This document shows positions 1-35,701 of a stretch of 42,540 bases of DNA, piece by piece (position 1 is the stretch's first letter; every line of letters begins with the position of its first letter). The notes below the pieces were generated by a model, which saw only the letters and a program-made list of their open reading frames with translations, did no database searches and was not told where the DNA came from. The position numbers and the translations under genes were made by a program. The DNA lies in the IMG/VR virus record IMGVR_UViG_2541047682_000006; one strand, 5' to 3'. The DNA comes from a virus. Lineage: Duplodnaviria > Heunggongvirae > Uroviricota > Caudoviricetes.

Positions 1-2109
1 TTACACCATACTGTTAACCTGGCCGGGTAATTCGCTAGCTGGAATACGAAAGGTATACCAGGCATAACGACAGCGTTTCCACAGGCTGGAGAAATGGAGA
101 TGATAAAGGCAATCTGCAATAATTTCGTTATCTGGATATAAAGACTCGGCAAAATGTGTCCAGCGCGCACTGAGTTTCATGTTAAACAGTTTTTCATCTT
201 CTTTGTTACCATACAGGCGCGACAAAGTAATCATTGCTTCGAGCGTACCTTTATTCGCTTCTTCTTGTACCTGTTGGAGGTGCAAATGAGCAAGTGAGAG
301 TTCTTTCACCTCAAAGATATTAAGTAAAAAAAGCCCCCATGCTTTTTCATGTCCAGCTTCATGAGCCAGAAATAAATTGTCAAGGAGATTTTTTTCATAA
401 ATAGCCCGTGTTTCTTTAGAAATTTCTTGTTTATTTAGTGCCTGGTAGCAGATAGCAATGCTAAAATAAATATTTTGTAGATCTTGTTGATGTTCGCTAT
501 AACCATAATTTTTTACCAGTGGATAAGATACCGAGCTATGGAAATTTAGGTCATCTTGAAGTATTTTAAGTGCCCGTCGAAAATACTCCAAAGCTGTAGA
601 TGGTTCATAAGGTAATTTTGTATTGTCTTCCTTATCCAAATATTCAAGAGCAACTAAATTTAATGCGGCAGGAATATTTCTTTGCTTACCAATTGTCGCA
701 AGCGGAATGAAATAATCAGAAAGGTCAAACCAACTCAAATCTTTTATTGCCGACCGCCAATTATGATTGTATTTAATGTCACTAGTTTTTTCCAGCCAAG
801 CATCGCCCTGCCCTTCATCTTTTTCAAAACCCAAAATACCCTCTCGCTGGAAAAACCCCCTATAAATAACAGGTGTAGCATAAGTTGTATTCTGTGAATT
901 TTGGCAGATAAAATTATATATCCAGAATGAATCTGGATAATAACTTAATGCAAATTTTATCGCGTACGCAGTGTAATAATTATTGAGCTTCATGTCTTCC
1001 ATCACCGCTCGCTGTATACAGCACCACAACTTATCGTGATCGTTCTGCTTGTTATAGCAGGCAAGTAACCACTCTAGGGCATTATGGCGACATTCCTGAA
1101 ATTGTGCGTACTGAGCAATATTCTCTGCTAAGTCGATTGCATATTGTTGCTCCTCGGGCGCAATGTCCTCAATGCTGACATCTCGGTAATCATCCCACCA
1201 AAGTAAGAGATCCATATAGTCATGTTCTTCGGTAGATAAGTGCTTACAGGTTACTGAATCCAGCAATTCGGAAATTTCTTTATGCGACCCTCCCCAGCGT
1301 GGCATTCGAAATGGTATATATTCAACAAAAGGATAAAAAGTGTGAGGAAAAATAGTCAGGCAAACAGAAAGCCAATATTTTTGCCCACCATCATCATCAT
1401 ACTCAGGAAGTATATTGGGGCGAGGCAAAACGGGGCATATTGCATGCTCAAACGAAAGTCCGGAATACGCCATCAACGCTTCCACTTCTTGCGGGGAGCG
1501 GCGGTGATAATTTTTCAGTGCGATCATTAATGGTATTCCTGCGACACTATCACCGTTAAGGTGTGCCGCCAGCCAGGCTGGCTGACCAAATACTTTTGAG
1601 TTGGTGCTGGTAAGTAATGCAGCCATCCATTGTCGTGGGTCACAATCAATTGCTTTAAGTGTAGCGATGACCATTTGTTCATTACATGCACCAGCACAAA
1701 GCCACATTGCATGTGTGGTATCATTTGCCCAGCCATAACTGCGATATAACCATGCACGGTGATTCCAGTATTGTGCTTCGGCAAGCCAGGCATGTGTAGA
1801 ATGAGGTCTTGCTTGCTGCCAGGTTTTAATGAGTCTTAAACCTTCTGTTCCGGCATCAACTAGCGTGTTCATATCATAAAAATAGTTGCACATTTGGGTC
1901 CAGGATAAAAAATAGCGCTTTTCAGCCTGACGAGAAGTGAAACTCTCCTGTAATACCTGGTTATAAATTTCATCTAGTTCCTGATAACGTTTTTCTTGTA
2001 ACATATAAGGAATATTTGCGATTTGCCATTTTCTCTCAAGAGTATTAAGTGGCATTTTTTGGTCACACATCTTTTGCATTGCACTGAGTAAACGAGCATC
2101 CTGTTCCAT
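1..2109 (-). CDS. Hypothetical protein (~702 aa), Trp/Tyr/Cys-rich; third gene of an AT-rich three-gene operon
   Basis: ORF track 1..2148 (stop codon is the first 3 nt of the window). ATG at 2107-2109 is preceded by an AAGGA Shine-Dalgarno and lies 10 nt after the stop of the upstream gene, so it is preferred over the ATG at 2148. No motif I can assign. Confidence 0.6.
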   Translation of the reverse strand: MEQDARLLSAMQKMCDQKMPLNTLERKWQIANIPYMLQEKRYQELDEIYNQVLQESFTSRQAEKRYFLSWTQMCNYFYDMNTLVDAGTEGLRLIKTWQQARPHSTHAWLAEAQYWNHRAWLYRSYGWANDTTHAMWLCAGACNEQMVIATLKAIDCDPRQWMAALLTSTNSKVFGQPAWLAAHLNGDSVAGIPLMIALKNYHRRSPQEVEALMAYSGLSFEHAICPVLPRPNILPEYDDDGGQKYWLSVCLTIFPHTFYPFVEYIPFRMPRWGGSHKEISELLDSVTCKHLSTEEHDYMDLLLWWDDYRDVSIEDIAPEEQQYAIDLAENIAQYAQFQECRHNALEWLLACYNKQNDHDKLWCCIQRAVMEDMKLNNYYTAYAIKFALSYYPDSFWIYNFICQNSQNTTYATPVIYRGFFQREGILGFEKDEGQGDAWLEKTSDIKYNHNWRSAIKDLSWFDLSDYFIPLATIGKQRNIPAALNLVALEYLDKEDNTKLPYEPSTALEYFRRALKILQDDLNFHSSVSYPLVKNYGYSEHQQDLQNIYFSIAICYQALNKQEISKETRAIYEKNLLDNLFLAHEAGHEKAWGLFLLNIFEVKELSLAHLHLQQVQEEANKGTLEAMITLSRLYGNKEDEKLFNMKLSARWTHFAESLYPDNEIIADCLYHLHFSSLWKRCRYAWYTFRIPASELPGQVNSMV

Positions 2110-2119
2110 AGATATCCTT

Positions 2120-2836
2120 TTAATTAGGTTCAAAAATTTTAAATTCATTCCACGGCAATTTTTTCCAGTTACTGGATGGATCTTTCAACCATGCAGTGAC
2201 TTCCTTTAAATCACGGTTCGCAGTGGCGACGGGGGTATCGTATATCATTAACCATTTTTGTCGGGCGCGAACATAAGCACTGGCATAATCTTCCCATGAA
2301 GCGAAACAATCTTGTGCTCTTTGAGCATTCAGTAATAACACTATCCAGGCCTGGTTTTCATCGCACCAGCCTAAACCGGCGATGCAACGAGTTAAAAAAG
2401 CAGTGCGCATACAGTCAAACGCCAGCCCATCCAGAACCTGGCCTTGTGCTGCCAGTTGTTCGTAAAAATCATGTGGAGAATTACCAAGCCCTGTAGCCCA
2501 GCGCTGTAATATAACGCCAATTTGTTGACGGAAATCTTCGTTGCTTTGGTAAGTTTCTGTTCCTAGCTCTTGTTTAACCTGTAGTGCAAGTTGTTGACGC
2601 TTATCATCAGTCAACTTTAAATCTAACGTGAAGCCATTTACTGACAGTCCATTACGACGAGCAACTATATCACCAATTGCTAATGCCCACTTACGTCTCT
2701 TTGTTGCTCGTCTTTTGTCCTTGATTAGATCCTTTTCTTTTTCTTTAGCAATAAAAGCATCGATTTGTGGTTTGTTTTTTTTGTATCTATAGATAAAAAT
2801 AAATATTGCGACCAGGAGAACAATGATAAGACTCAT
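2120..2836 (-). CDS. Membrane-anchored hypothetical protein (N-terminal hydrophobic helix; possibly DUF1266-like by recollection)
   Basis: 238-aa ORF. N-terminus LIIVLLVAIFIFIY is a predicted transmembrane segment followed by a basic stretch. Start ATG overlaps the stop of the upstream gene by 1 nt (TAATG), indicating translational coupling. Confidence 0.55.
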   Translation of the reverse strand: MSLIIVLLVAIFIFIYRYKKNKPQIDAFIAKEKEKDLIKDKRRATKRRKWALAIGDIVARRNGLSVNGFTLDLKLTDDKRQQLALQVKQELGTETYQSNEDFRQQIGVILQRWATGLGNSPHDFYEQLAAQGQVLDGLAFDCMRTAFLTRCIAGLGWCDENQAWIVLLLNAQRAQDCFASWEDYASAYVRARQKWLMIYDTPVATANRDLKEVTAWLKDPSSNWKKLPWNEFKIFEPN

Positions 2837-4050
2837 TATTTTTCAACCTCTGACAGGGGTAAGTAATGAGATGTCTGTAATGTCAAACTCTCTATCTCAA
2901 AGGAAATGTTGCTGATATTTTGACCTGCAAATTGCGGATGCCACTCAGCGCCAGGGAATAACATTTCCGCAGAAGTAGCAACTATAGGGTCAATAGCATT
3001 AAGATAATGTAACTTATCAGGTGCGCTGTGTAACAGTAACCACTGCAACTCCACTGAAGGATTTGTAAAATGTTCTAATAAATGAAAGTTATTATGTAGT
3101 ACGCTTAGTAAAAAACTGGTTTCGTATACTTCCGTTACATATTTCCACCCCTGATATTCAGGTGTATTTTCATAAACAATACCCATACCTTCACAATCAC
3201 TATGTCGAACTGCTTGTGGTGATAATAGTTGCAAAAGAGACAAAACATCGTCCGCATATTTTTTAACTGGATGACGATTTTGCTTACCTTTTATTTGATC
3301 AATTTCAAGTGAATCACCAACAACATTGAGAGCAATAGTAACATGAGGAATATTATTATTATCACGCAAACTGAATAACCGTAATTTATGTTGCTCAATT
3401 TGATTTGCATAATACTCACCATAACCACCGGTAAGATTTTTTCGATCATCAAACTGGCCTACGCAATGTTGCATATGCCATGATTCATAAGCCATTTCAC
3501 GACGAAGGTTCGAATGACTGGCATCAAACTCAACAATTTTTCCGTCTGGCACATCAAGTATTGACTTTACAGTATTTTGTTCACTCGGCTGCCACCCTTT
3601 CTCGCGTCGTTGAAGCATCTTTTCATGCTCTTCTTCACGCATTCTGAACGCAACGTAGCAGGTTATGCGCTGTAGTTTTGATTCCAGACGGGTACCACAT
3701 TTCCTGGAAAGAAATTCCACCAACTCCCGTTCTTTGGTTAATATTTGTTGATGATCGGTTTCGATATAATAAAGTGTCGCAGTTGATACTGAGGCAGTAT
3801 TAAACTTCGATACCAGCCATTCCGGGATTACATCATCATTTTTATTAAACAGTGAATATTCTGCAAGCGAGTTAATTTGTTGCACCATTGGAAAGTCACT
3901 AATTAGCCATCGATAAAAATGGTTGAGTAACCATTTTTGGATGGTCTCATTATCCTGGCGAAACAGACTTCTTTGCAAAATTGCTGTTTTTACTTCCGGG
4001 GCATTAATTACATCCCTTGCATTATAATTCTGGTGAATATTTCCAGTCAT
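2836..4050 (-). CDS. Hypothetical protein (404 aa), first gene of the three-gene operon
   Basis: Long ORF with ATG start at 4048-4050 and a ~480-bp AT-rich upstream region facing yegQ; no recognisable catalytic motif. Confidence 0.55.
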   Translation of the reverse strand: MTGNIHQNYNARDVINAPEVKTAILQRSLFRQDNETIQKWLLNHFYRWLISDFPMVQQINSLAEYSLFNKNDDVIPEWLVSKFNTASVSTATLYYIETDHQQILTKERELVEFLSRKCGTRLESKLQRITCYVAFRMREEEHEKMLQRREKGWQPSEQNTVKSILDVPDGKIVEFDASHSNLRREMAYESWHMQHCVGQFDDRKNLTGGYGEYYANQIEQHKLRLFSLRDNNNIPHVTIALNVVGDSLEIDQIKGKQNRHPVKKYADDVLSLLQLLSPQAVRHSDCEGMGIVYENTPEYQGWKYVTEVYETSFLLSVLHNNFHLLEHFTNPSVELQWLLLHSAPDKLHYLNAIDPIVATSAEMLFPGAEWHPQFAGQNISNISFEIESLTLQTSHYLPLSEVEK

Positions 4051-4537: not shown

Positions 4538-5899
4538 ATGTTTAAACCGGAACTCCTTTCCCCGGCGGGAACGCTGAAAAATATGCGTTACGCTTTCGCT
4601 TATGGCGCAGATGCTGTTTATGCGGGCCAGCCGCGTTACTCCCTGCGTGTACGCAACAACGAATTCAACCACGAAAATCTTCAGCTCGGCATCAATGAAG
4701 CCCACGCGCTGGGGAAAAAGTTTTATGTCGTGGTCAACATTGCACCGCACAACGCCAAGCTGAAAACCTTTATCCGTGACCTGAAACCGGTGGTGGAAAT
4801 GGGGCCGGATGCGCTGATTATGTCCGATCCAGGGCTGATTATGCTGGTGCGTGAACACTTCCCGGAAATGCCAATCCACCTCTCGGTACAGGCTAACGCC
4901 GTAAACTGGGCGACGGTGAAATTCTGGCAGCAAATGGGTCTGACCCGCGTGATCCTCTCTCGCGAACTGTCACTGGAAGAGATTGAAGAGATCCGCAATC
5001 AGGTGCCGGATATGGAGATCGAAATCTTCGTTCACGGCGCGCTGTGCATGGCCTACTCCGGTCGCTGCCTGCTCTCTGGCTATATCAACAAGCGCGACCC
5101 GAACCAGGGCACCTGCACCAACGCCTGCCGCTGGGAGTACAATGTCCAGGAAGGGAAAGAAGATGACGTCGGCAACATCGTACACAAGTACGAGCCGATT
5201 CCGGTGCAAAATGTTGAGCCGACGCTGGGTATCGGCGCGCCAACCGACAAAGTGTTTATGATCGAAGAAGCCCAGCGTCCGGGCGAGTATATGACCGCGT
5301 TTGAAGATGAGCACGGCACTTACATCATGAACTCGAAAGATCTGCGCGCCATCGCCCATGTTGAACGCCTGACCAAAATGGGCGTGCATTCGCTGAAAAT
5401 CGAAGGCCGTACCAAATCTTTCTACTATTGCGCACGCACCGCGCAGGTTTACCGTAAAGCTATCGATGACGCCGCTGCGGGCAAACCGTTCGATACCAGC
5501 CTGCTGGAAACGCTGGAAGGTCTGGCGCATCGTGGCTATACCGAAGGTTTCCTGCGTCGTCATACCCACGACGATTATCAGAACTACGAATACGGTTATT
5601 CGGTTTCTGACCGCCAGCAGTTTGTTGGTGAGTTTACCGGTGAGCGCAAGGGGGAGCTCGCGGCGGTAGCGGTGAAAAATAAATTCTCCGTTGGCGACAG
5701 CCTTGAGCTGATGACGCCGCAAGGCAACATTAACTTTACCCTTGAGCATATGGAAAACGCCAAAGGTGAAGCGATGCCGGTCGCACCAGGCGATGGTTAT
5801 ACTGTGTGGCTCCCGGTGCCGCAGGATCTTGAGCTAAATTACGCGCTGCTGATGCGTAATTTCTCCGGGGAAACCACGCGTAACCCCCACGGTAAGTGA
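4538..5899 (+). CDS. yegQ: U32-family peptidase-like protein YegQ (TrhP, tRNA hydroxylation)
   Basis: 453-aa ORF whose translation (MFKPELLSPAGTLKNMRYAFAYGADAVYAGQPRYSLR...) matches my recollection of E. coli YegQ; the Cys-rich segment CTNACRWEY is typical of the U32 family. Confidence 0.9.
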   Translation: MFKPELLSPAGTLKNMRYAFAYGADAVYAGQPRYSLRVRNNEFNHENLQLGINEAHALGKKFYVVVNIAPHNAKLKTFIRDLKPVVEMGPDALIMSDPGLIMLVREHFPEMPIHLSVQANAVNWATVKFWQQMGLTRVILSRELSLEEIEEIRNQVPDMEIEIFVHGALCMAYSGRCLLSGYINKRDPNQGTCTNACRWEYNVQEGKEDDVGNIVHKYEPIPVQNVEPTLGIGAPTDKVFMIEEAQRPGEYMTAFEDEHGTYIMNSKDLRAIAHVERLTKMGVHSLKIEGRTKSFYYCARTAQVYRKAIDDAAAGKPFDTSLLETLEGLAHRGYTEGFLRRHTHDDYQNYEYGYSVSDRQQFVGEFTGERKGELAAVAVKNKFSVGDSLELMTPQGNINFTLEHMENAKGEAMPVAPGDGYTVWLPVPQDLELNYALLMRNFSGETTRNPHGK

Positions 5900-11571: not shown

Positions 11572-12776
11572 CGGTCAGGCTCCTTATAATTGCTGTTAAC
11601 CGAGGTGACCAGATTTGCCAGGTATTTATCGGTAATACGCTGGCGCAGGGTCAGGTTTTCAAGAGGAGGCACCGGTGTATAGTCGTAGTCGATATACAGT
11701 TTTCCGGCCTTGAGGGTTTCCGCATCGTTGGATTCTTCGCTGAACCAGCAGGTCGCATCCACGATATAGCCGTTTGTTTTCAGCTCACGGAATTTGGCAT
11801 TGATGCCGTCAACGATGTCGCGAATCAGCGTTGCGGTGATGGGCTTGTCCACCGCCCACATGTGCGCCTCAGCCATCGTGTCAGCCAGTACCTGCGCGGT
11901 GCGGGTGTAGTTTTCAAAGAGGAACAGCGGGTCATCAGAGCAGGTACGGTTACCCCAGAATCGGAAACCGTCGCGGCGAATCAGCGTAGTGACGCCTGAC
12001 TCGTTAAGCAGGTCAGCATCGGTGCCGGACTCCTGCAAATCCCAGAATACAGATGCGCTGATGCCGGTAACACCGTTTACCCCGACGTTGGACAGCGTTT
12101 TATGCCAGCCCTGCTCCTGGTCGATTTTAGCGCGCAGACCCAGCGCACGGGCGGTGGCATACGCGGTAGCGGTGGTACTGGTGACCGTATCCCATGCGAG
12201 GAAATCCGGCCAGATGACCATCAGCTCACGCTGGCTGAAATTCTGGCGGTAGGCTTTCACCTCGGAAATGGTCTTACAGCCCCATGCGCTGATATATCCG
12301 AAAGCGCGCAGCTTCTGACAGACGGATGCCAGTGCAACAGCCACCTCTTTGGTATCCAGTCCCGGCACACCGAGAATACGCGGTTTAACACCGGTTACCG
12401 ACTCCGCCGCCAGCAGGGCTTTTAGTCCGGTGTACTGACCGTTTTCGTCGGTGGTGCCGATGATATTGGAAACGGTCTGCGCGAGTTTCGTTTCCTCGTC
12501 ATCACCGGTGCAGTCTTCCACGCGCACGACAACGGTGACCGGTTTTGACTGGTCAGCGATGGCCTGCAACGATGCCGCCAGCGTGCCTTTTTTACCGGCC
12601 TTTGCAATTGCGCTTTGCACATTGGTAATCAGCACCGGTTTATTGAGGGGGAAGGTTTCCGCATCCGCATCGCTGGCCGTGCAGACCATGCCGACAATGG
12701 CAGTGGATACGGTGGAAATGACGCGGGTGCCGTCGTTAATCTCCAGCACCTGCACGCCATGATGATAGTCACTCAT
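11544..12776 (-). CDS. FI: Contractile tail sheath protein (P2 gpFI-like)
   Basis: 410-aa ORF, first gene of the FI-FII-E-T-U-D block; its 3' end overlaps the FII start by 28 nt. Confidence 0.85.
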   Translation of the reverse strand: MSDYHHGVQVLEINDGTRVISTVSTAIVGMVCTASDADAETFPLNKPVLITNVQSAIAKAGKKGTLAASLQAIADQSKPVTVVVRVEDCTGDDEETKLAQTVSNIIGTTDENGQYTGLKALLAAESVTGVKPRILGVPGLDTKEVAVALASVCQKLRAFGYISAWGCKTISEVKAYRQNFSQRELMVIWPDFLAWDTVTSTTATAYATARALGLRAKIDQEQGWHKTLSNVGVNGVTGISASVFWDLQESGTDADLLNESGVTTLIRRDGFRFWGNRTCSDDPLFLFENYTRTAQVLADTMAEAHMWAVDKPITATLIRDIVDGINAKFRELKTNGYIVDATCWFSEESNDAETLKAGKLYIDYDYTPVPPLENLTLRQRITDKYLANLVTSVNSNYKEPDRWQCRANSS

Positions 12777-12871
12777 CCGTTTAACTCCGTGGTTAATGGG
12801 TACAACTATTTTCTGTTGTGCAGAGCATAAGACGCTATTTGACCTGGCTGGTCAGTGGATGAAACAACAGA

Positions 12872-12899
12872 TAAAGAAAAGGCGGGCAATTCGCCCGCC
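12872..12899 (-). terminator. Rho-independent terminator (minus strand) separating the cargo/tail-fibre transcripts from the FI operon
   Basis: GC-rich stem GGCGGGC/GCCCGCC (12881-12899, 5-nt loop) followed on the minus strand by a T-rich run (plus AGAAAA at 12875-12880). Confidence 0.5.
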
Positions 12900-12962
12900 T
12901 GTCCTGATTTGTACTCACTCATTTTCCGCCTGACAATTTACATAGCCCAAATGCTATCAAAC

Positions 12963-12974
12963 CTGACAGTCTGC
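12963..12974. repeat. 12-bp repeat CTGACAGTCTGC (copy 1), at the left edge of the AT-rich cargo island
   Basis: Exact 12-bp inverted match to 15395-15406 and 11-bp direct match to 15273-15283. Confidence 0.6.
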
Positions 12975-13106
12975 TTTGAGCGAAAAGTGGACATTAGAGT
13001 TACAAAAGCAAGTTTAAATCATCCAAAATATTACAATGTCCTTATCTATCTGATATCGTTATGATAAAAAGCTCCTGAATATAATCGATAGTAGGTGGTT
13101 ATTTCC

Positions 13107-13484
13107 ATGAAATCAATTTTAGAGGTCTTTACTCAAGGAAATACTAAAGAAAAACTGGCTGTTATCGCCGATCTCACAACCATTGCGGGAATATCGATTG
13201 CAACTATTATTGCTGGTTTGTTAACCCTAGTTGCAAAAACAGATAAACTAGATGTTGGAAATCTGTTTGGAGTTGTCATAATATCTCTGCTCGGATTGGC
13301 TGGTGTTTGCTGTTTTGTGGCCTTATTTATTTGGGTTATAACCCAAATGTCTAAACCATGGGGAACACCTCGGGGGGTTCAGCCCTTAGTTAAGTGTGCT
13401 ATTTCCCTTATCTTTATCTGTATGTTTTTGCTGGCTGTCTTTACATTTTATGAGTTTATTTCTTCGATGAGCATACGCTATTGA
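13107..13484 (+). CDS. Small hydrophobic membrane protein (~125 aa, 3-4 predicted TM helices), hypothetical
   Basis: Track ORF 13095..13484 (GTG); ATG at 13107 with an upstream AGGTGG. Hydrophobic stretches IAGISIATIIAGLLTLVA, VVIISLLGLAGVCCFVALFIWVI, ISLIFICMFLLAVFTFY. AT-rich; convergent with the recombinase gene. Confidence 0.5.
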   Translation: MKSILEVFTQGNTKEKLAVIADLTTIAGISIATIIAGLLTLVAKTDKLDVGNLFGVVIISLLGLAGVCCFVALFIWVITQMSKPWGTPRGVQPLVKCAISLIFICMFLLAVFTFYEFISSMSIRY

Positions 13485-13506
13485 ATATAAAATCAGCCCC
13501 CATAAC

Positions 13507-14091
13507 TTAAAAGAGACCTTCTATATCGACTTCAATGCCCAAATAACGGACTGTGCTTTCCAGTTTCTTATGGCCCAACAGAAGTTGGATCACCCGGAGA
13601 CTCTTGGTTTTCTTGTAGATTAAGTAAGGTTTTGTTCTTCTCATGGAATGTGTGCTGTACAGCGAATCTTCGAGACCAAGCTTTTCTACCCACCCATGAA
13701 AAATTCGGTTGTATTGCCGGGTTGATATATGGTGGTTAGTTCCGACCCGAGAGCGGAACAGGAAGCCTTTACTATGCCAGTTGCCGAGCTTTATCAATGC
13801 AGTAACCGCTTCCCTTGTCCCTTTGGTTATCTCAAATTGGACAGGGCTGCCGGTTTTCTGTTGCAACACCGTTGCTCTGCTTGAGACAGAACTGCCATAT
13901 GCAGCATCTGATACTTTGAGTTTGACCAAATCACAGCCCCGTAGCTTAGTGTCCAAAGCCATGTTGAACAGAGCTAGATCGCGTGTTTTACCTTCCAACT
14001 CAAGTCTAATCCGGATCCCCCAGATATGAAATATCTGAAGTGGCCTTTTTTGACCGATGGTACGGTCTTTATTCCACGGTGACGTTTTCAT
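13507..14091 (-). CDS. Small tyrosine site-specific recombinase (FimB/FimE-like invertase/integrase catalytic domain, ~194 aa)
   Basis: Translation carries the tyrosine-recombinase motifs in order: Arg box (ALDTKLRGCDLVKLKVSD), HSMRRT (H-x-x-R), LLGH, and RYLG (nucleophile Tyr). ATG at 14089-14091 with AGGAG Shine-Dalgarno; the track ORF starts upstream at a TTG. Confidence 0.7.
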   Translation of the reverse strand: MKTSPWNKDRTIGQKRPLQIFHIWGIRIRLELEGKTRDLALFNMALDTKLRGCDLVKLKVSDAAYGSSVSSRATVLQQKTGSPVQFEITKGTREAVTALIKLGNWHSKGFLFRSRVGTNHHISTRQYNRIFHGWVEKLGLEDSLYSTHSMRRTKPYLIYKKTKSLRVIQLLLGHKKLESTVRYLGIEVDIEGLF

Positions 14092-14197
14092 ATTCAAATC
14101 TCCTGCAATGTGGGAGATTTGAGTATGGTTGTCTCTCAAGAGCGAAAATAAGTCAACTATCACTAGTTGTTGCGCATGTACGTATTCTGTCAATTAA

Positions 14198-15040
14198 TTA
14201 TTGACAATCATCAATTCTGGAATGATCAAAATCATCATATCGAATTATAGTCTGGTTGACTGTATCTATTGTTGGTGTCATTTCTGTTATAATATCCTGA
14301 TAACCTAAAGAGTTAAATACATTTACTAAGGCCTCACACCGAAGGGCCGTAGCAATTACAAAATTATAAATTGCCAGCCGTTTATTTTCTTGTTTAACTG
14401 CAAGAATGAATTCGATAGCAGTATTTTCATCACTTTGGATTGCATTATATAGAGATACTATATTTACCATATCATCAGAGAATGTATGTATTGAATCACA
14501 AAGGGGAACGTAATGGGCATGATAGTGTGTTTCCCAGCCAATTAATTCAAAAAGTCTTCTGGTTCCTGGATATTCAGGTGTATTTGGCCACAATCTATTA
14601 AATAGATCAGTTAGTTCTTTTCCCATGCGAATCCTTTCATTTGCTGCTGGATTAGTCATTCCTTTGGATTTTAAACACTCCAGCCACCGTTTTCCATTAC
14701 TATGAACTAATTTCTTACTAGCCTTGAGTAATGCTTGTGCATTTTCGCCATCATCTATTGCTATATAAAATTGATTGGCAGCCTGTTCTATTATAACCCT
14801 AGCTAATACTTCCGATGCTGAAAAGGCTCCTATATTCAAAGAAGAGATAGCCTGATTACTAAGTTCATTCAGTACATTAAAGTACTGTAAGACCATCAAT
14901 TTTTGTTCCACACCCTTTAGGTTGTCTATTTTATTTTTATGCTCCTCAAATTTTGCATGGATATATTTATTTATCGCGGCTATTTTTTTTACATCTTCGT
15001 CAAGATCAAACGGGCAACGTCCAAACAATTCTTTTTTCAT
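14198..15040 (-). CDS. Hypothetical protein (280 aa), AT-rich cargo gene directly upstream of the recombinase
   Basis: ORF with ATG start and AGGAG Shine-Dalgarno; 4-nt gap to the recombinase ORF; preceded by a 420-bp noncoding leader containing the repeat copies. Confidence 0.6.
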   Translation of the reverse strand: MKKELFGRCPFDLDEDVKKIAAINKYIHAKFEEHKNKIDNLKGVEQKLMVLQYFNVLNELSNQAISSLNIGAFSASEVLARVIIEQAANQFYIAIDDGENAQALLKASKKLVHSNGKRWLECLKSKGMTNPAANERIRMGKELTDLFNRLWPNTPEYPGTRRLFELIGWETHYHAHYVPLCDSIHTFSDDMVNIVSLYNAIQSDENTAIEFILAVKQENKRLAIYNFVIATALRCEALVNVFNSLGYQDIITEMTPTIDTVNQTIIRYDDFDHSRIDDCQ

Positions 15041-15272
15041 ATATTTCTCCTGTTGTACAAGCTTCCATAAGTTGGCAGATTATACACTGAAGATTACCTA
15101 TAAATAGCTGTGCGGGATAGCAGATCAGTGCAAGAAGTACAACCAAGTGAACTGTGCGTATTCAGATACCTGGCCTAACGTTCGCGATAGCCGTCCCCTG
15201 CACGAAGCCATATATTAGATGTATTAGCTCAGACCTTATCTGACAGGTTGAGTAGGTAGAATCTAATCAAAG

Positions 15273-15283
15273 CTGACAGTCTG
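15273..15283. repeat. 11-bp repeat CTGACAGTCTG (copy 2, direct)
   Basis: Exact 11-bp match to 12963-12973 and inverted match to 15396-15406; lies in the leader between the 280-aa gene and G. Confidence 0.6.
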
Positions 15284-15394
15284 GTTTGGACTGTGAGTTC
15301 AACCGATGGATGCAACACACAGCGATCTACGGACATTACTAGCATAGCTGTGTATTAATCATCGGGAAGCAGGTCAGTCCGCTCCTAGCACAGA

Positions 15395-15406
15395 GCAGAC
15401 TGTCAG
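15395..15406. repeat. 12-bp repeat GCAGACTGTCAG (copy 3, inverted orientation)
   Basis: Reverse complement CTGACAGTCTGC equals 12963-12974; with copy 2 it flanks a 111-bp segment. Confidence 0.6.
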
Positions 15407-15461
15407 ATTAGGCTTTACTCTGTGCTATAGATACGTTAGCTCACTCCAGAGATCATACAAC

Positions 15462-15989
15462 TTATTGCGGCATTTCCGGCCATTCAGGATTTGCAGGATC
15501 CACACGGCTGACCAGAACACTGTAGCGTTCCCATGCTTCCAGTCGGCTACGCTCCTCATCTGTTGCCATATTCAGTCTGACAGAGCGTTCCAGTGGCTGA
15601 ATGATAGTTTCAGCTTCGGAAAGCAAAGCTGACTTCTGTAATTCCGCCAGTTGCAGCTGTTCGTCTGCCGTATAAATCCGCTTAATCACGGCACCATCCT
15701 TAAACATCCATTTACCTGAGTCATCAGCACGTCGGTTGGCGGTAATATCAGGAACCTCGACAACGCTAAAACCTTCAGGGTTGAGCGTTGAAGCATCTCT
15801 GGTGATGCCGACAATTATATTATTCTCATCGTAAACAATCTTTATCGTGTCTTCCTGAAAATTACTTACTTCCTCATACCAGTTTTTTCCCTCTTCGGAC
15901 CATAACCAGATAACATCAAAATTTTTTGTCAGTTGATATTGGGCAACAGTTTTTGGATTACCCGCAGTAATATTTTTTAAATGCTGCAT
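15462..15989 (-). CDS. G: Tail fibre assembly chaperone (P2 gpG-like)
   Basis: 175-aa ORF immediately downstream of H, at the P2 position. Confidence 0.8.
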
Positions 15990-33484: not shown

Positions 33485-35701
33485 ATGGAACTTAGATTAA
33501 AAAATGTTACCAGTTATAAGAAAGACGCCTTCACAATACTGAATCTTGAAAAAAGAGTAAACATACTATACGGCCAAAATGGTTGTGGCAAATCTACCAT
33601 TTCAAATTATTTCTACGACTCTACACACACAGATTATAACGAGTGTGAATGTACCCTTCTTGACAATTACAAACCTCTTGTTTACAACACTAAATTTATT
33701 GAAGATAACTTCTATAATGCACAGGAACAAAAAGGTGTTTTTACATTAAGTAAAGAAAATGCAGATATTGAAAAACAATTAATTGAAAAAGAAGCAATTA
33801 AACAGCAACTCACAGAGCAATATAGACAAAAAAAAGGAGTGTTATTGAAATTAGAAGCAGAAATGGAAAAAAAAGAAAATGAATACATCGAATCGATCTG
33901 GAAAAAAACAGAACCAATCAGAAACTCTGTACTAAAAACCTTAATGAAAGGTAAAGTTGGCTATAAAAGACCTTTTTTTGAGATGATAAAATCATCCTCA
34001 CCAATCACCTTTATTAATTTAAATGATATAGCAAAAGAATACTCTATACTATTAGAAAATAGAAACAATGAAACCGCATTAATAACTCCTTTACATCCAT
34101 ATACCCCATCAATTGATGATGTAAATACATTAGCAACACCTATAATAGATACAAGCAATAGCTATTTATCAGAAACCATTAATAAACTTCATAATCTTGA
34201 CTGGGTAAAAAAAGGTAAAGAACATTATTTAGACGGTTCTACATGTCCGTTTTGTCAGGAAAAAACTATTAGTCACGAATTTTTAAATGCCCTTAAATCA
34301 ATATTTGACGAAAGTTATTCAAAGAAAGTAAAACAGCTCTCAGATATAAAGTCAGTTTATGAGAAAAATACCATATATCATTTTAACGAAATACAAAACA
34401 ATATATCATCATGTGCACTAATCAATGAGAAAGATAAAGAGAACATTATTTCCAATATTAAAATATTGCAAAACATTGCAGAAAAAAATTTAATAAACAT
34501 TATTGATAAGATCAACAATCCATCAACATGCGTTACATTAGAAATTGATAAAGAACTAGAAAATCATGTTCAGGAAAGCATAGGCGCTGTTAACAAGAAA
34601 ATAAGAGACATAAATGATAAGGTTAAAAAACTCAAAGAGTATGAGAATAAAATCGGAAAACAAGTTTGGGGGGCTCTCCATGCTTTTTGCAGCGATGATT
34701 TAGAGAATTTATCCAAACACAAAGAAAAATTCTTTGATATCAAAAAGAAAGTTCATGATGAATTAAATAATATTGAGCAACAAGGAAAAGAAAATAATCT
34801 CACAATAAAAGCATTGCGAGATAAAATATCTAACATTGATTCTACGATAGACTCAATAAACACCCATTTAAAAAATCTAGGGATCTCTGGTTTTTGTATT
34901 GAAAAACATGCAGAAAGAAAAGATATGTACATTATATCTCGACCAGGGCATACAAAAAACCAAAATGTTTATAGATCTCTTAGCGAAGGTGAAAAAACAC
35001 TAATAACGTTTCTTTATTTTTTAGAGTGCTGTAAAGGTAAAACCGATAAAAATGATACCGATAGCAGGGATATTTTTATTGTTATTGACGATCCAATATC
35101 TAGTCTATCGCAAAACTATGTCTACGACATCGCATCAATTATTCATCACCACATTATAAAAAATGAATTAACAAAGAAGGTATTAATCCTTACTCACAAT
35201 CTTTATTTCTTTCATGAACTTATTAAGCTATCTCCTAAAAGCAGAGAAGACAAACTATTTAAGAAAAACTATTATCTAGGTAGAGTAACGAAAAATGATT
35301 TTAGTATAATTACTGAAATACAAAAAAACAGCATACAGAATGAATATCAATCTTTGTGGCAAATATTAAAAGATGCAAAAGATGGCAAAGCAAACAAAAT
35401 CATAATACCGAATATTATGAGAAACATACTAGAATATTATTTTGCATTTGTTCATAGAACAGATGCTCTACAAGATGAATTAACAAAGTTGGCACGCGAC
35501 GATAGCAACAGTGATTTCAAAGCATTCTACAGATACATTAACAGAGGTTCTCACTCTGATGCGGTAAATATTACTGATATGGGCGACATAGACCCAGATA
35601 AATACCTAAAACAATTGAGAACAATATTTTCAGCTACTGGTGACGAAATGCATTATTTAAAAATGATGGACGAACTAGAAGAGGAAAACGTTACCGCTTA
35701 G
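33485..35701 (+). CDS. RloC/PrrC-like ABC ATPase (738 aa) with coiled-coil insert carrying a CxxC motif; putative anticodon nuclease or abortive-infection ATPase
   Basis: Walker A GQNGCGKST near the N-terminus; long Lys/Glu-rich coiled-coil region containing CPFC; ABC signature-like LSEGEK, Walker B IFIVIDDP, H-loop LTHN; C-terminal MRNILE...H arrangement (R-x3-E then His). AT-rich single gene at the P2 old/tin position with AGG Shine-Dalgarno. Confidence 0.5.
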   Translation: MELRLKNVTSYKKDAFTILNLEKRVNILYGQNGCGKSTISNYFYDSTHTDYNECECTLLDNYKPLVYNTKFIEDNFYNAQEQKGVFTLSKENADIEKQLIEKEAIKQQLTEQYRQKKGVLLKLEAEMEKKENEYIESIWKKTEPIRNSVLKTLMKGKVGYKRPFFEMIKSSSPITFINLNDIAKEYSILLENRNNETALITPLHPYTPSIDDVNTLATPIIDTSNSYLSETINKLHNLDWVKKGKEHYLDGSTCPFCQEKTISHEFLNALKSIFDESYSKKVKQLSDIKSVYEKNTIYHFNEIQNNISSCALINEKDKENIISNIKILQNIAEKNLINIIDKINNPSTCVTLEIDKELENHVQESIGAVNKKIRDINDKVKKLKEYENKIGKQVWGALHAFCSDDLENLSKHKEKFFDIKKKVHDELNNIEQQGKENNLTIKALRDKISNIDSTIDSINTHLKNLGISGFCIEKHAERKDMYIISRPGHTKNQNVYRSLSEGEKTLITFLYFLECCKGKTDKNDTDSRDIFIVIDDPISSLSQNYVYDIASIIHHHIIKNELTKKVLILTHNLYFFHELIKLSPKSREDKLFKKNYYLGRVTKNDFSIITEIQKNSIQNEYQSLWQILKDAKDGKANKIIIPNIMRNILEYYFAFVHRTDALQDELTKLARDDSNSDFKAFYRYINRGSHSDAVNITDMGDIDPDKYLKQLRTIFSATGDEMHYLKMMDELEEENVTA

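Follow-up and report, generated by a model that had tools for sequence, protein, structure and literature searches.

A DUF5677 gene as cargo of the Z/fun hotspot in a P2-like Escherichia coli prophage: a candidate phage-exclusion gene beside a small tyrosine recombinase

The window, which is the whole stretch of 42,540 nucleotides that was analysed, matches a P2-like prophage of E. coli, and the gene for a 280-residue protein of the DUF5677 family is low-GC, single-gene accessory cargo in its Z/fun hotspot. The function that we favour for this gene, and hold tentatively, is that of a single-protein phage-exclusion or abortive-infection protein having its own promoter and a conserved pocket. 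A defence role is argued here from context, and the gene is a plausible candidate for it. The gene is an already annotated hypothetical protein in an already known hotspot and is not a surprise in itself; the bigger prize would be the cassette context, which is made up of a minimal tyrosine recombinase and short inverted-repeat sites at the boundaries of the cargo.

Position, expression signals and conservation of the gene

The gene is placed between the tail-fibre assembly gene G (15462-15989, Caudo_TAP) and the tail sheath gene FI (11586-12776), which confirms the P2 Z/fun position that the original prediction had assigned to it. The AT-richness claimed along with this position was also found, the GC content of the gene being 0.342, while FI has 0.559 and the block of baseplate and tail genes 0.577, and a good Shine-Dalgarno sequence, as claimed, is present 6 nt ahead of the start codon (Table 1). 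The 2.7 kb around the gene are found with 100% identity in E. coli ATCC 11775 and in about 35 other complete genomes. The records of P2-family phages match the flanks alone, covering 12% of the query, and the cargo varies between the relatives of P2. By its location between G and FI, its variable segment, its atypical GC content and its conserved Shine-Dalgarno sequence and TATAAT (a predicted promoter), the gene has the features of a moron. The search of Rfam returned nothing within 12700-15600.

The TATAAT hexamer upstream of the start codon is a candidate promoter of the gene's own, as we infer from the sequence; it was missed by the consensus scan, where at least four matches out of six are required in both hexamers. 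The conservation of this -10 element suggests that the gene is expressed in the lysogen. Selection was estimated against the 86%-identical copy of lambdoid prophages and a dN/dS of 0.37 was obtained, and the E. coli sequences form two clusters at 90% identity, with 328 and 73 member sequences. Judged by such comparison of sequences, the open reading frame is a genuine gene under purifying selection.

Table 1. Features of the hotspot region in window coordinates
Feature	Position	Strand	Basis or remark
DUF5677 coding sequence, 280 aa, ATG start	14198..15040	-	open reading frame; Pfam PF18928; PHROG 4167; RefSeq WP_000711883.1
Shine-Dalgarno AGGAG of the DUF5677 gene	15047..15051	-	sequence; kept in lambdoid copy L006
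Candidate -10 element TATAAT, perfect, about 39 nt 5′ of the DUF5677 ATG; weak -35	15079..15084	-	sequence; kept in lambdoid copy L006
Type-A site at the G-side hotspot edge, minus strand GTCTGCTC-TGTGCTAG-GAGCGGAC	15377..15400	.	8-8-8 repeat
Degenerate B-like site GTCCGTAG-ATCGCTGT... with flank repeating backbone	15240..15346	.	travels with the DUF5677 cassette
Type-B hybrid site directly 5′ of the recombinase leader, minus strand GACTTATT-TTCGCTCT-TGAGAGAC	14131..14154	.	
15-9-15 inverted repeat over the recombinase Shine-Dalgarno and ATG	14089..14127	.	one copy per locus; near-identical in the recombinase loci examined
Tyrosine recombinase, 194 aa, catalytic domain only	13507..14091	-	PF00589, 64.4 bits; RefSeq WP_001447266.1
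Small protein with three hydrophobic segments, gene convergent with the recombinase gene	13107..13484	+	PHROG 4155
Type-B site at the FI-side hotspot edge, minus strand GTCCACTT-TTCGCTCA-AAGCAGAC	12969..12992	.	exactly 257 nt before FI
Backbone intrinsic terminator in the hotspot-FI gap	12880..12900	-	conserved in P2

The 86%-identical copy is carried by lambdoid prophages of E. coli, including those of E2348/69-type strains, near an AAA_15/AAA_21 ATPase pair and hok, and the homology of the window to these lambdoid copies begins at 15325. Relatives having 41% identity are located directly after the replication genes of lambdoid prophages, and their neighbours are either DUF4365, NADAR, PRTase-CE and GAPS4 genes or dCTP-deaminase-like and AAA_15 genes. 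Among the distant relatives several are situated in ordinary (Pseudomonas-type) chromosomal loci and others in prophages. In this survey of homologue neighbourhoods, which had been proposed earlier as a check on the defence role, the lambdoid surroundings speak for defence and the ordinary chromosomal loci against it.

Other parts of the window also carry cargo. The other P2 hotspot (the old/tin position, flanked by the replication gene and the portal side; 33485-35701, plus strand) has a GC content of 27-31% and encodes a 738-aa AAA_13 ATPase which matches the PADLOC candidate PDC-S06 (E 1e-254), with weak matches to PrrC and LmuB. Outside the tail-side end of the prophage, positions 1-4050 (minus strand) hold low-GC genes (35-45%) with DUF4034, DUF1266 and PcfJ-like products, and no PADLOC model was matched by the genes of this region.

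Family, predicted fold and conserved residues

The claim that the protein belongs to no recognisable family was wrong. It matches PF18928 (DUF5677) with an E-value of 8e-10 and 39.5 bits against a gathering cut-off of 27.1, it is matched end to end by PHROG 4167 (E 2e-202), and its RefSeq name is "DUF5677 domain-containing protein". All 46 aligned members match PF18928 and no other Pfam family recurs among them; NCBIfam gave no match for the protein. It has the same length class (270-310 aa) and the same single domain as the members of Pfam DUF5677 and PHROG 4167, although the Pfam model covers only residues 50-194 of it. DUF5677 has no assigned function, so the membership says nothing on mechanism. 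Just 51 relatives at E ≤ 1e-3 were obtained when 1.84 billion cluster representatives were searched exhaustively with HMMER, all of them single-domain proteins of about 270-330 aa, and in a profile search of a 5.8-billion protein set the relatives were without domain fusions and without informative names. No partner, toxin-antitoxin arrangement or domain fusion hinting at a mechanism was seen among the relatives searched.

The protein is soluble and acidic (32 kDa, pI 5.7), and a pore-forming or membrane protein was ruled out as it has no hydrophobic segment (maximum KD19 1.35). The AF2 model, made from the 46-sequence alignment, is all-alpha with ten helices and is very confident (pLDDT 95, pTM 0.92). 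The model was checked with Foldseek against PDB and BFVD (viral models) and nothing was obtained below E 0.09. When PDB was searched by sequence, neither the protein by itself nor the profile of 46 sequences brought up more than chance matches.

Residues R81, E85, Y173 and H185 are invariant across the 46 relatives, down to about 16% identity, and nine more columns are nearly invariant; among the conserved columns are E77, R81, E85, N89, W119, P158, F164, Y173, S183, H185, D190 and N193. Of these, E77, R81, E85 and N89 share one face of helix 3, helix 7 ends with Y173, S183 and H185, and helix 8 contributes D190 and N193; this pattern suggests a polar pocket. The protein was compared with HEPN proteins (AF0298/2hsb, TT1696/1ufb and sacsin HEPN/3o10). 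Their Rx4-6H motif is lacking in it, no histidine being located 5-7 residues past any conserved arginine among the conserved columns. None of the 46 members matched a HEPN Pfam family at E ≤ 1, Foldseek gave no support for the likeness, and a HEPN domain is about half the size of this 280-residue protein of ten helices.

The neighbouring recombinase and the repeat sites at the cargo boundaries

The recombinase gene is located 106 nt 3′ of the DUF5677 gene on the same strand, and its translation has all the catalytic residues (R, K, HxxR, H and Y, in LRGCD, QQKTG, HSMRRT and LGH...RY). No minus-strand terminator was detected between the two genes, and on sequence grounds their co-transcription is plausible. 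The recombinase has a conserved leader of about 60 nt, which is kept in loci with a divergent upstream gene, and with this leader of its own it does not depend on read-through from DUF5677. Together with the leader, the recombinase is found at about 90% identity in about 800 of 5426 complete E. coli genomes (about 15%), with neighbours that differ from locus to locus. Its copies (194-200 aa; L010, L011, L012, L115-L118) were seen in lambdoid and e14-like prophages, a plasmid and chromosomal islands. The cassettes beside it elsewhere include PD-T7-1 (E 4e-157), HEC-08 (E 1e-173) and PD-T4-3 (E 2e-140), further neighbours are two Mrr-type (Mrr_cat) nucleases, a PDC-M01B-like protein and dynamins, and the recombinase may be a useful marker for defence cargo.

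The state of the recombinase was followed in the loci which carry DUF5677. In L006-L009 the recombinase gene is broken across reading frames and DUF5677 is intact, and of ten lambdoid viral contigs nine show the same, the remaining one ending at the gene. In one P2-like viral contig (L244, 6950-7265) a deletion extends from codon 36 of the recombinase through the gene of the small membrane protein and the FI-side B site, and DUF5677 is again intact; the relatives at 23-54% identity have no recombinase nearby. As DUF5677 is intact where the recombinase is broken, deleted or absent, it is selected on its own, and by this comparison of loci the recombinase is not a functional partner of it. The membrane-protein gene is also absent from the lambdoid copies, in which DUF5677 is kept, and judged from these sequences it is separate cargo which is not needed with DUF5677. 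A 94%-identical copy of it stands alone beside a type-A site in an unrelated viral contig (L089, 2636-3013).

The 15-9-15 inverted repeat over the start of the recombinase gene is probably an element of translational control or an autoregulatory operator of the recombinase. Its use as a crossover site was also considered and was rejected, as both arms are conserved in every locus and each locus has a single copy. In one more P2-like viral contig (L077) the recombinase leader, start codon and adjoining B-type site are present in the hotspot region with no match to the recombinase protein; this looks like a remnant, and suggests that the recombinase entered P2 hotspots more than once.

A 24-nt inverted repeat, with arms and spacer of 8 bp each, is found repeatedly at the boundaries of the cargo. 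It has two spacer classes, the class A site being GTCCGCTC-TGTGCCAG-GAGCGGAC and the class B site GTCCGCTC-yTCGCTCA-arm. For the survey of these sites 38 P2-like viral contigs having both G and FI were retrieved by exact A-site arms. An A site is located at +53 or +65 nt past G in all the 38, a result which is not independent of the selection since the contigs were selected by exact A arms, and the B-type site, wherever detectable in them, is exactly 257 nt before FI. The G-FI interval of these contigs is 1.2-4.2 kb long with differing contents, and the long intervals hold extra internal sites. In the window the backbone homology to P2 begins at about 15385, and positions 15240-15288 are a direct repeat of 12930-12978 (49 nt, 71% identical), this B-site flank enclosing the block of DUF5677, recombinase and membrane-protein genes.

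A B site directly adjoins the recombinase gene in all the copies examined; the recombinase-side arm and the spacer of this site are constant and its outer arm varies with the cargo. The identity between recombinase loci breaks at or just upstream of the cargo-side arm of this site, and in the window it stops at 14145, inside the spacer. One recombinase locus (L118) is equal to another (L011) plus a 1.34-kb one-gene cassette at the A site (L011 7109-7132 against L118 8109-9495). The insertion has an A site at both ends, each copy with a single-base arm variant, one per spacer side, and this sequence footprint is as would be expected for a crossover within the 8-bp spacer. A cassette with a 314-aa gene is 99% identical in two different arrays, with A/B sites as its bounds. 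In control loci without the recombinase or the P2 hotspot none of the A/B sites was found, and a search for exact A arms in one genome per species gave, among the matches listed, mostly chance occurrences in unrelated high-GC taxa. The A site was also considered as a plain intrinsic terminator, which was rejected because it has no T-run and its conserved spacer recurs in non-P2 contexts.

The A/B sites also separate single-gene cassettes in the recombinase loci (L010 7548-7613 and 8764-8787; L011 2841-2906, 3897-3920 and 7109-7132; L116 7781-7846 and 9022-9045; L118 8109-8132 and 9472-9495), and composite A-18 nt-B junctions are seen between cassettes. The degenerate B-like site 5′ of DUF5677 is, in the lambdoid copies, also the exact end point of an IS3-family element, which stops at the spacer (L006, about 4696-4736; L251), the equivalent breakpoint of the window being 15325, and in one further hit (H21, NZ_CM160072.1) an IS3-family transposase gene is annotated inside the island. 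IS3-family elements may target the inverted-repeat sites.

Possible roles of the protein and comparison with known systems

In P2-like phages the Z/fun locus has been described as a second place of enrichment for defence genes, where fun and three validated systems reside (Vassallo 2022, PMC9519451). The earlier proposal of an exclusion or defence effector therefore keeps its argument from the hotspot position, which is stronger than was known when it was made, but nothing ties DUF5677 itself to defence. In PADLOC-DB v2.0.0 (5027 models) no family was obtained at E ≤ 1 for the protein, and the aligned set of 46 gave scattered single weak matches, none of them convincing. The sole reported test of any DUF5677 protein concerns an Enterococcus protein different from the E. 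coli one: in a preprint (PMC12632615) a DUF5677 open reading frame was chosen since the domain is enriched beside serine recombinases and was tested in E. faecalis with six phages, and it is not listed among the five protective candidates; from the main text of the published version DUF5677 is gone.

In the reading that we favour, the protein would act alone as a prophage-encoded phage-exclusion or abortive-infection protein, made in the lysogen by way of the gene's own promoter. Its effect would be exerted through the conserved polar pocket that lines helices 3, 7 and 8 (E77, R81, E85 and N89 with Y173, S183, H185, D190 and N193), which may be set in a HEPN-like helical core, and would be directed at a nucleic acid or a nucleotide, either the host's or the infecting phage's. 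Within this defence reading a HEPN-like nuclease mechanism is considerably more doubtful. The small tyrosine recombinase beside the gene is no partner of the protein and is more likely the mover of such cassettes. If the protein blocks phages, a small single-protein and structurally unassigned family would be added to the defence catalogue, and a Pfam DUF would receive its first function.

An accessory role outside defence, for example as a counter-defence factor of P2 during infection or for the fitness of the lysogen, is rather unlikely in our estimate, and it is the explanation with most to be said for it among those weighed in this and the following paragraph. The cargo of P2 hotspots is not exclusively defensive, the gene lies on the late-gene strand straight after H-G and could be read in lytic growth too, no defence model matches it, relatives are present in non-defence chromosomal loci, and the Enterococcus test was negative (PMC12632615). 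On the other side, defence genes predominate among the genes of known function in this locus and in the recombinase-linked cassettes, and the conserved -10 element of the gene points to expression in the lysogen.

Much less probable is that DUF5677 serves the adjacent recombinase as an accessory factor, in directionality or cassette mobility, and is not an effector. The arrangement of the two genes, with DUF5677 106 nt 5′ on the same strand, would fit this role, as would the enrichment of DUF5677 beside small serine recombinases in Bacillota, with which it is predicted to be co-transcribed (PMC12632615). The recombinase, however, is present without DUF5677 in the roughly 800 E. coli genomes, DUF5677 has stayed whole in loci with a frameshifted or deleted recombinase, and its relatives at 23-54% identity do without one nearby. 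Slightly more improbable still is a multi-gene system of which DUF5677 would be one part, with the small membrane protein or the recombinase or both. Membrane proteins are common effectors in defence systems, and the three genes together fill the hotspot in 36 complete E. coli genomes and five viral contigs; yet the membrane-protein gene lies on the opposite strand, is missing from all lambdoid copies and from the contig with the deletion while DUF5677 is kept, and occurs alone elsewhere (L089). Least probable of all is a hitch-hiking or decaying gene without current function. The sparseness of the subfamily (51 representatives in 1.84 billion) and the absence of any phenotype on record would agree with decay; the low dN/dS, the full-length conservation in two phage backgrounds, the polar residues invariant in 46 relatives and the very confident predicted fold argue against it.

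It is also possible, and is put forward with even more caution than the phage-exclusion role, that DUF5677 is one cassette of a natural integron-like exchange system as well as a new single-protein defence family, the 194-200 aa recombinase working on the A and B sites. The minimal tyrosine recombinase would act on both sites, which differ in their spacers, and would insert and swap single-gene cargo, much of it anti-phage, among the P2 Z/fun hotspot, lambdoid prophages, plasmids and chromosomal islands. Homologous recombination at the repeats is a live alternative and would leave the same or similar footprints. Judging by its title, a paper by Nilsson et al. (2004; cited in PMC9122126) had proposed site-specific recombination at the variable loci of P2 before, and it may already describe part of the site architecture. 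The architecture of sites and recombinase could explain the precise swapping of cargo in P2 hotspots and in other E. coli defence loci, and the recombinase together with the A/B sites could serve as a sequence signature for the mining of further unknown defence genes.

Among known systems, the P2 Z/fun cargo (fun and the three PD systems of Vassallo et al. 2022) has the same G-FI slot, low GC content, variability and single-gene form as DUF5677. In sequence, DUF5677 has no similarity to any PD system model or to the reference-type P2 cargo protein (E 8.9), and homology to the latter was ruled out.

The sites may be compared with the engineered cassette exchange at heterospecific lox/FRT sites. 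Here too two sites share their arms and differ in their 8-bp spacers, A being TGTGCCAG-like and B yTCGCTCA, and equal arms with different spacers are a layout which permits cassette swapping; the likeness is an analogy, the architecture of the present loci being read from sequence. Integrons (IntI, attI and attC, including the sedentary chromosomal ones in which defence genes are stored) likewise have a recombinase gene abutted by a site where the sequence turns variable, and single-gene cassettes, often defence genes, parted by inverted-repeat sites. The recombinase of the window, in contrast, is a minimal enzyme of 194-200 aa and not IntI: the NCBIfam models of integron integrases gave 17.8 bits against cut-offs of 265 and 435, and a protein of 194 aa is too short to accommodate the IntI-specific insertion. 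Unlike attC, the sites are short 8-8-8 repeats that fall into two spacer classes, the cassettes are present in both orientations, and the arrays are located inside prophages, plasmids and islands.
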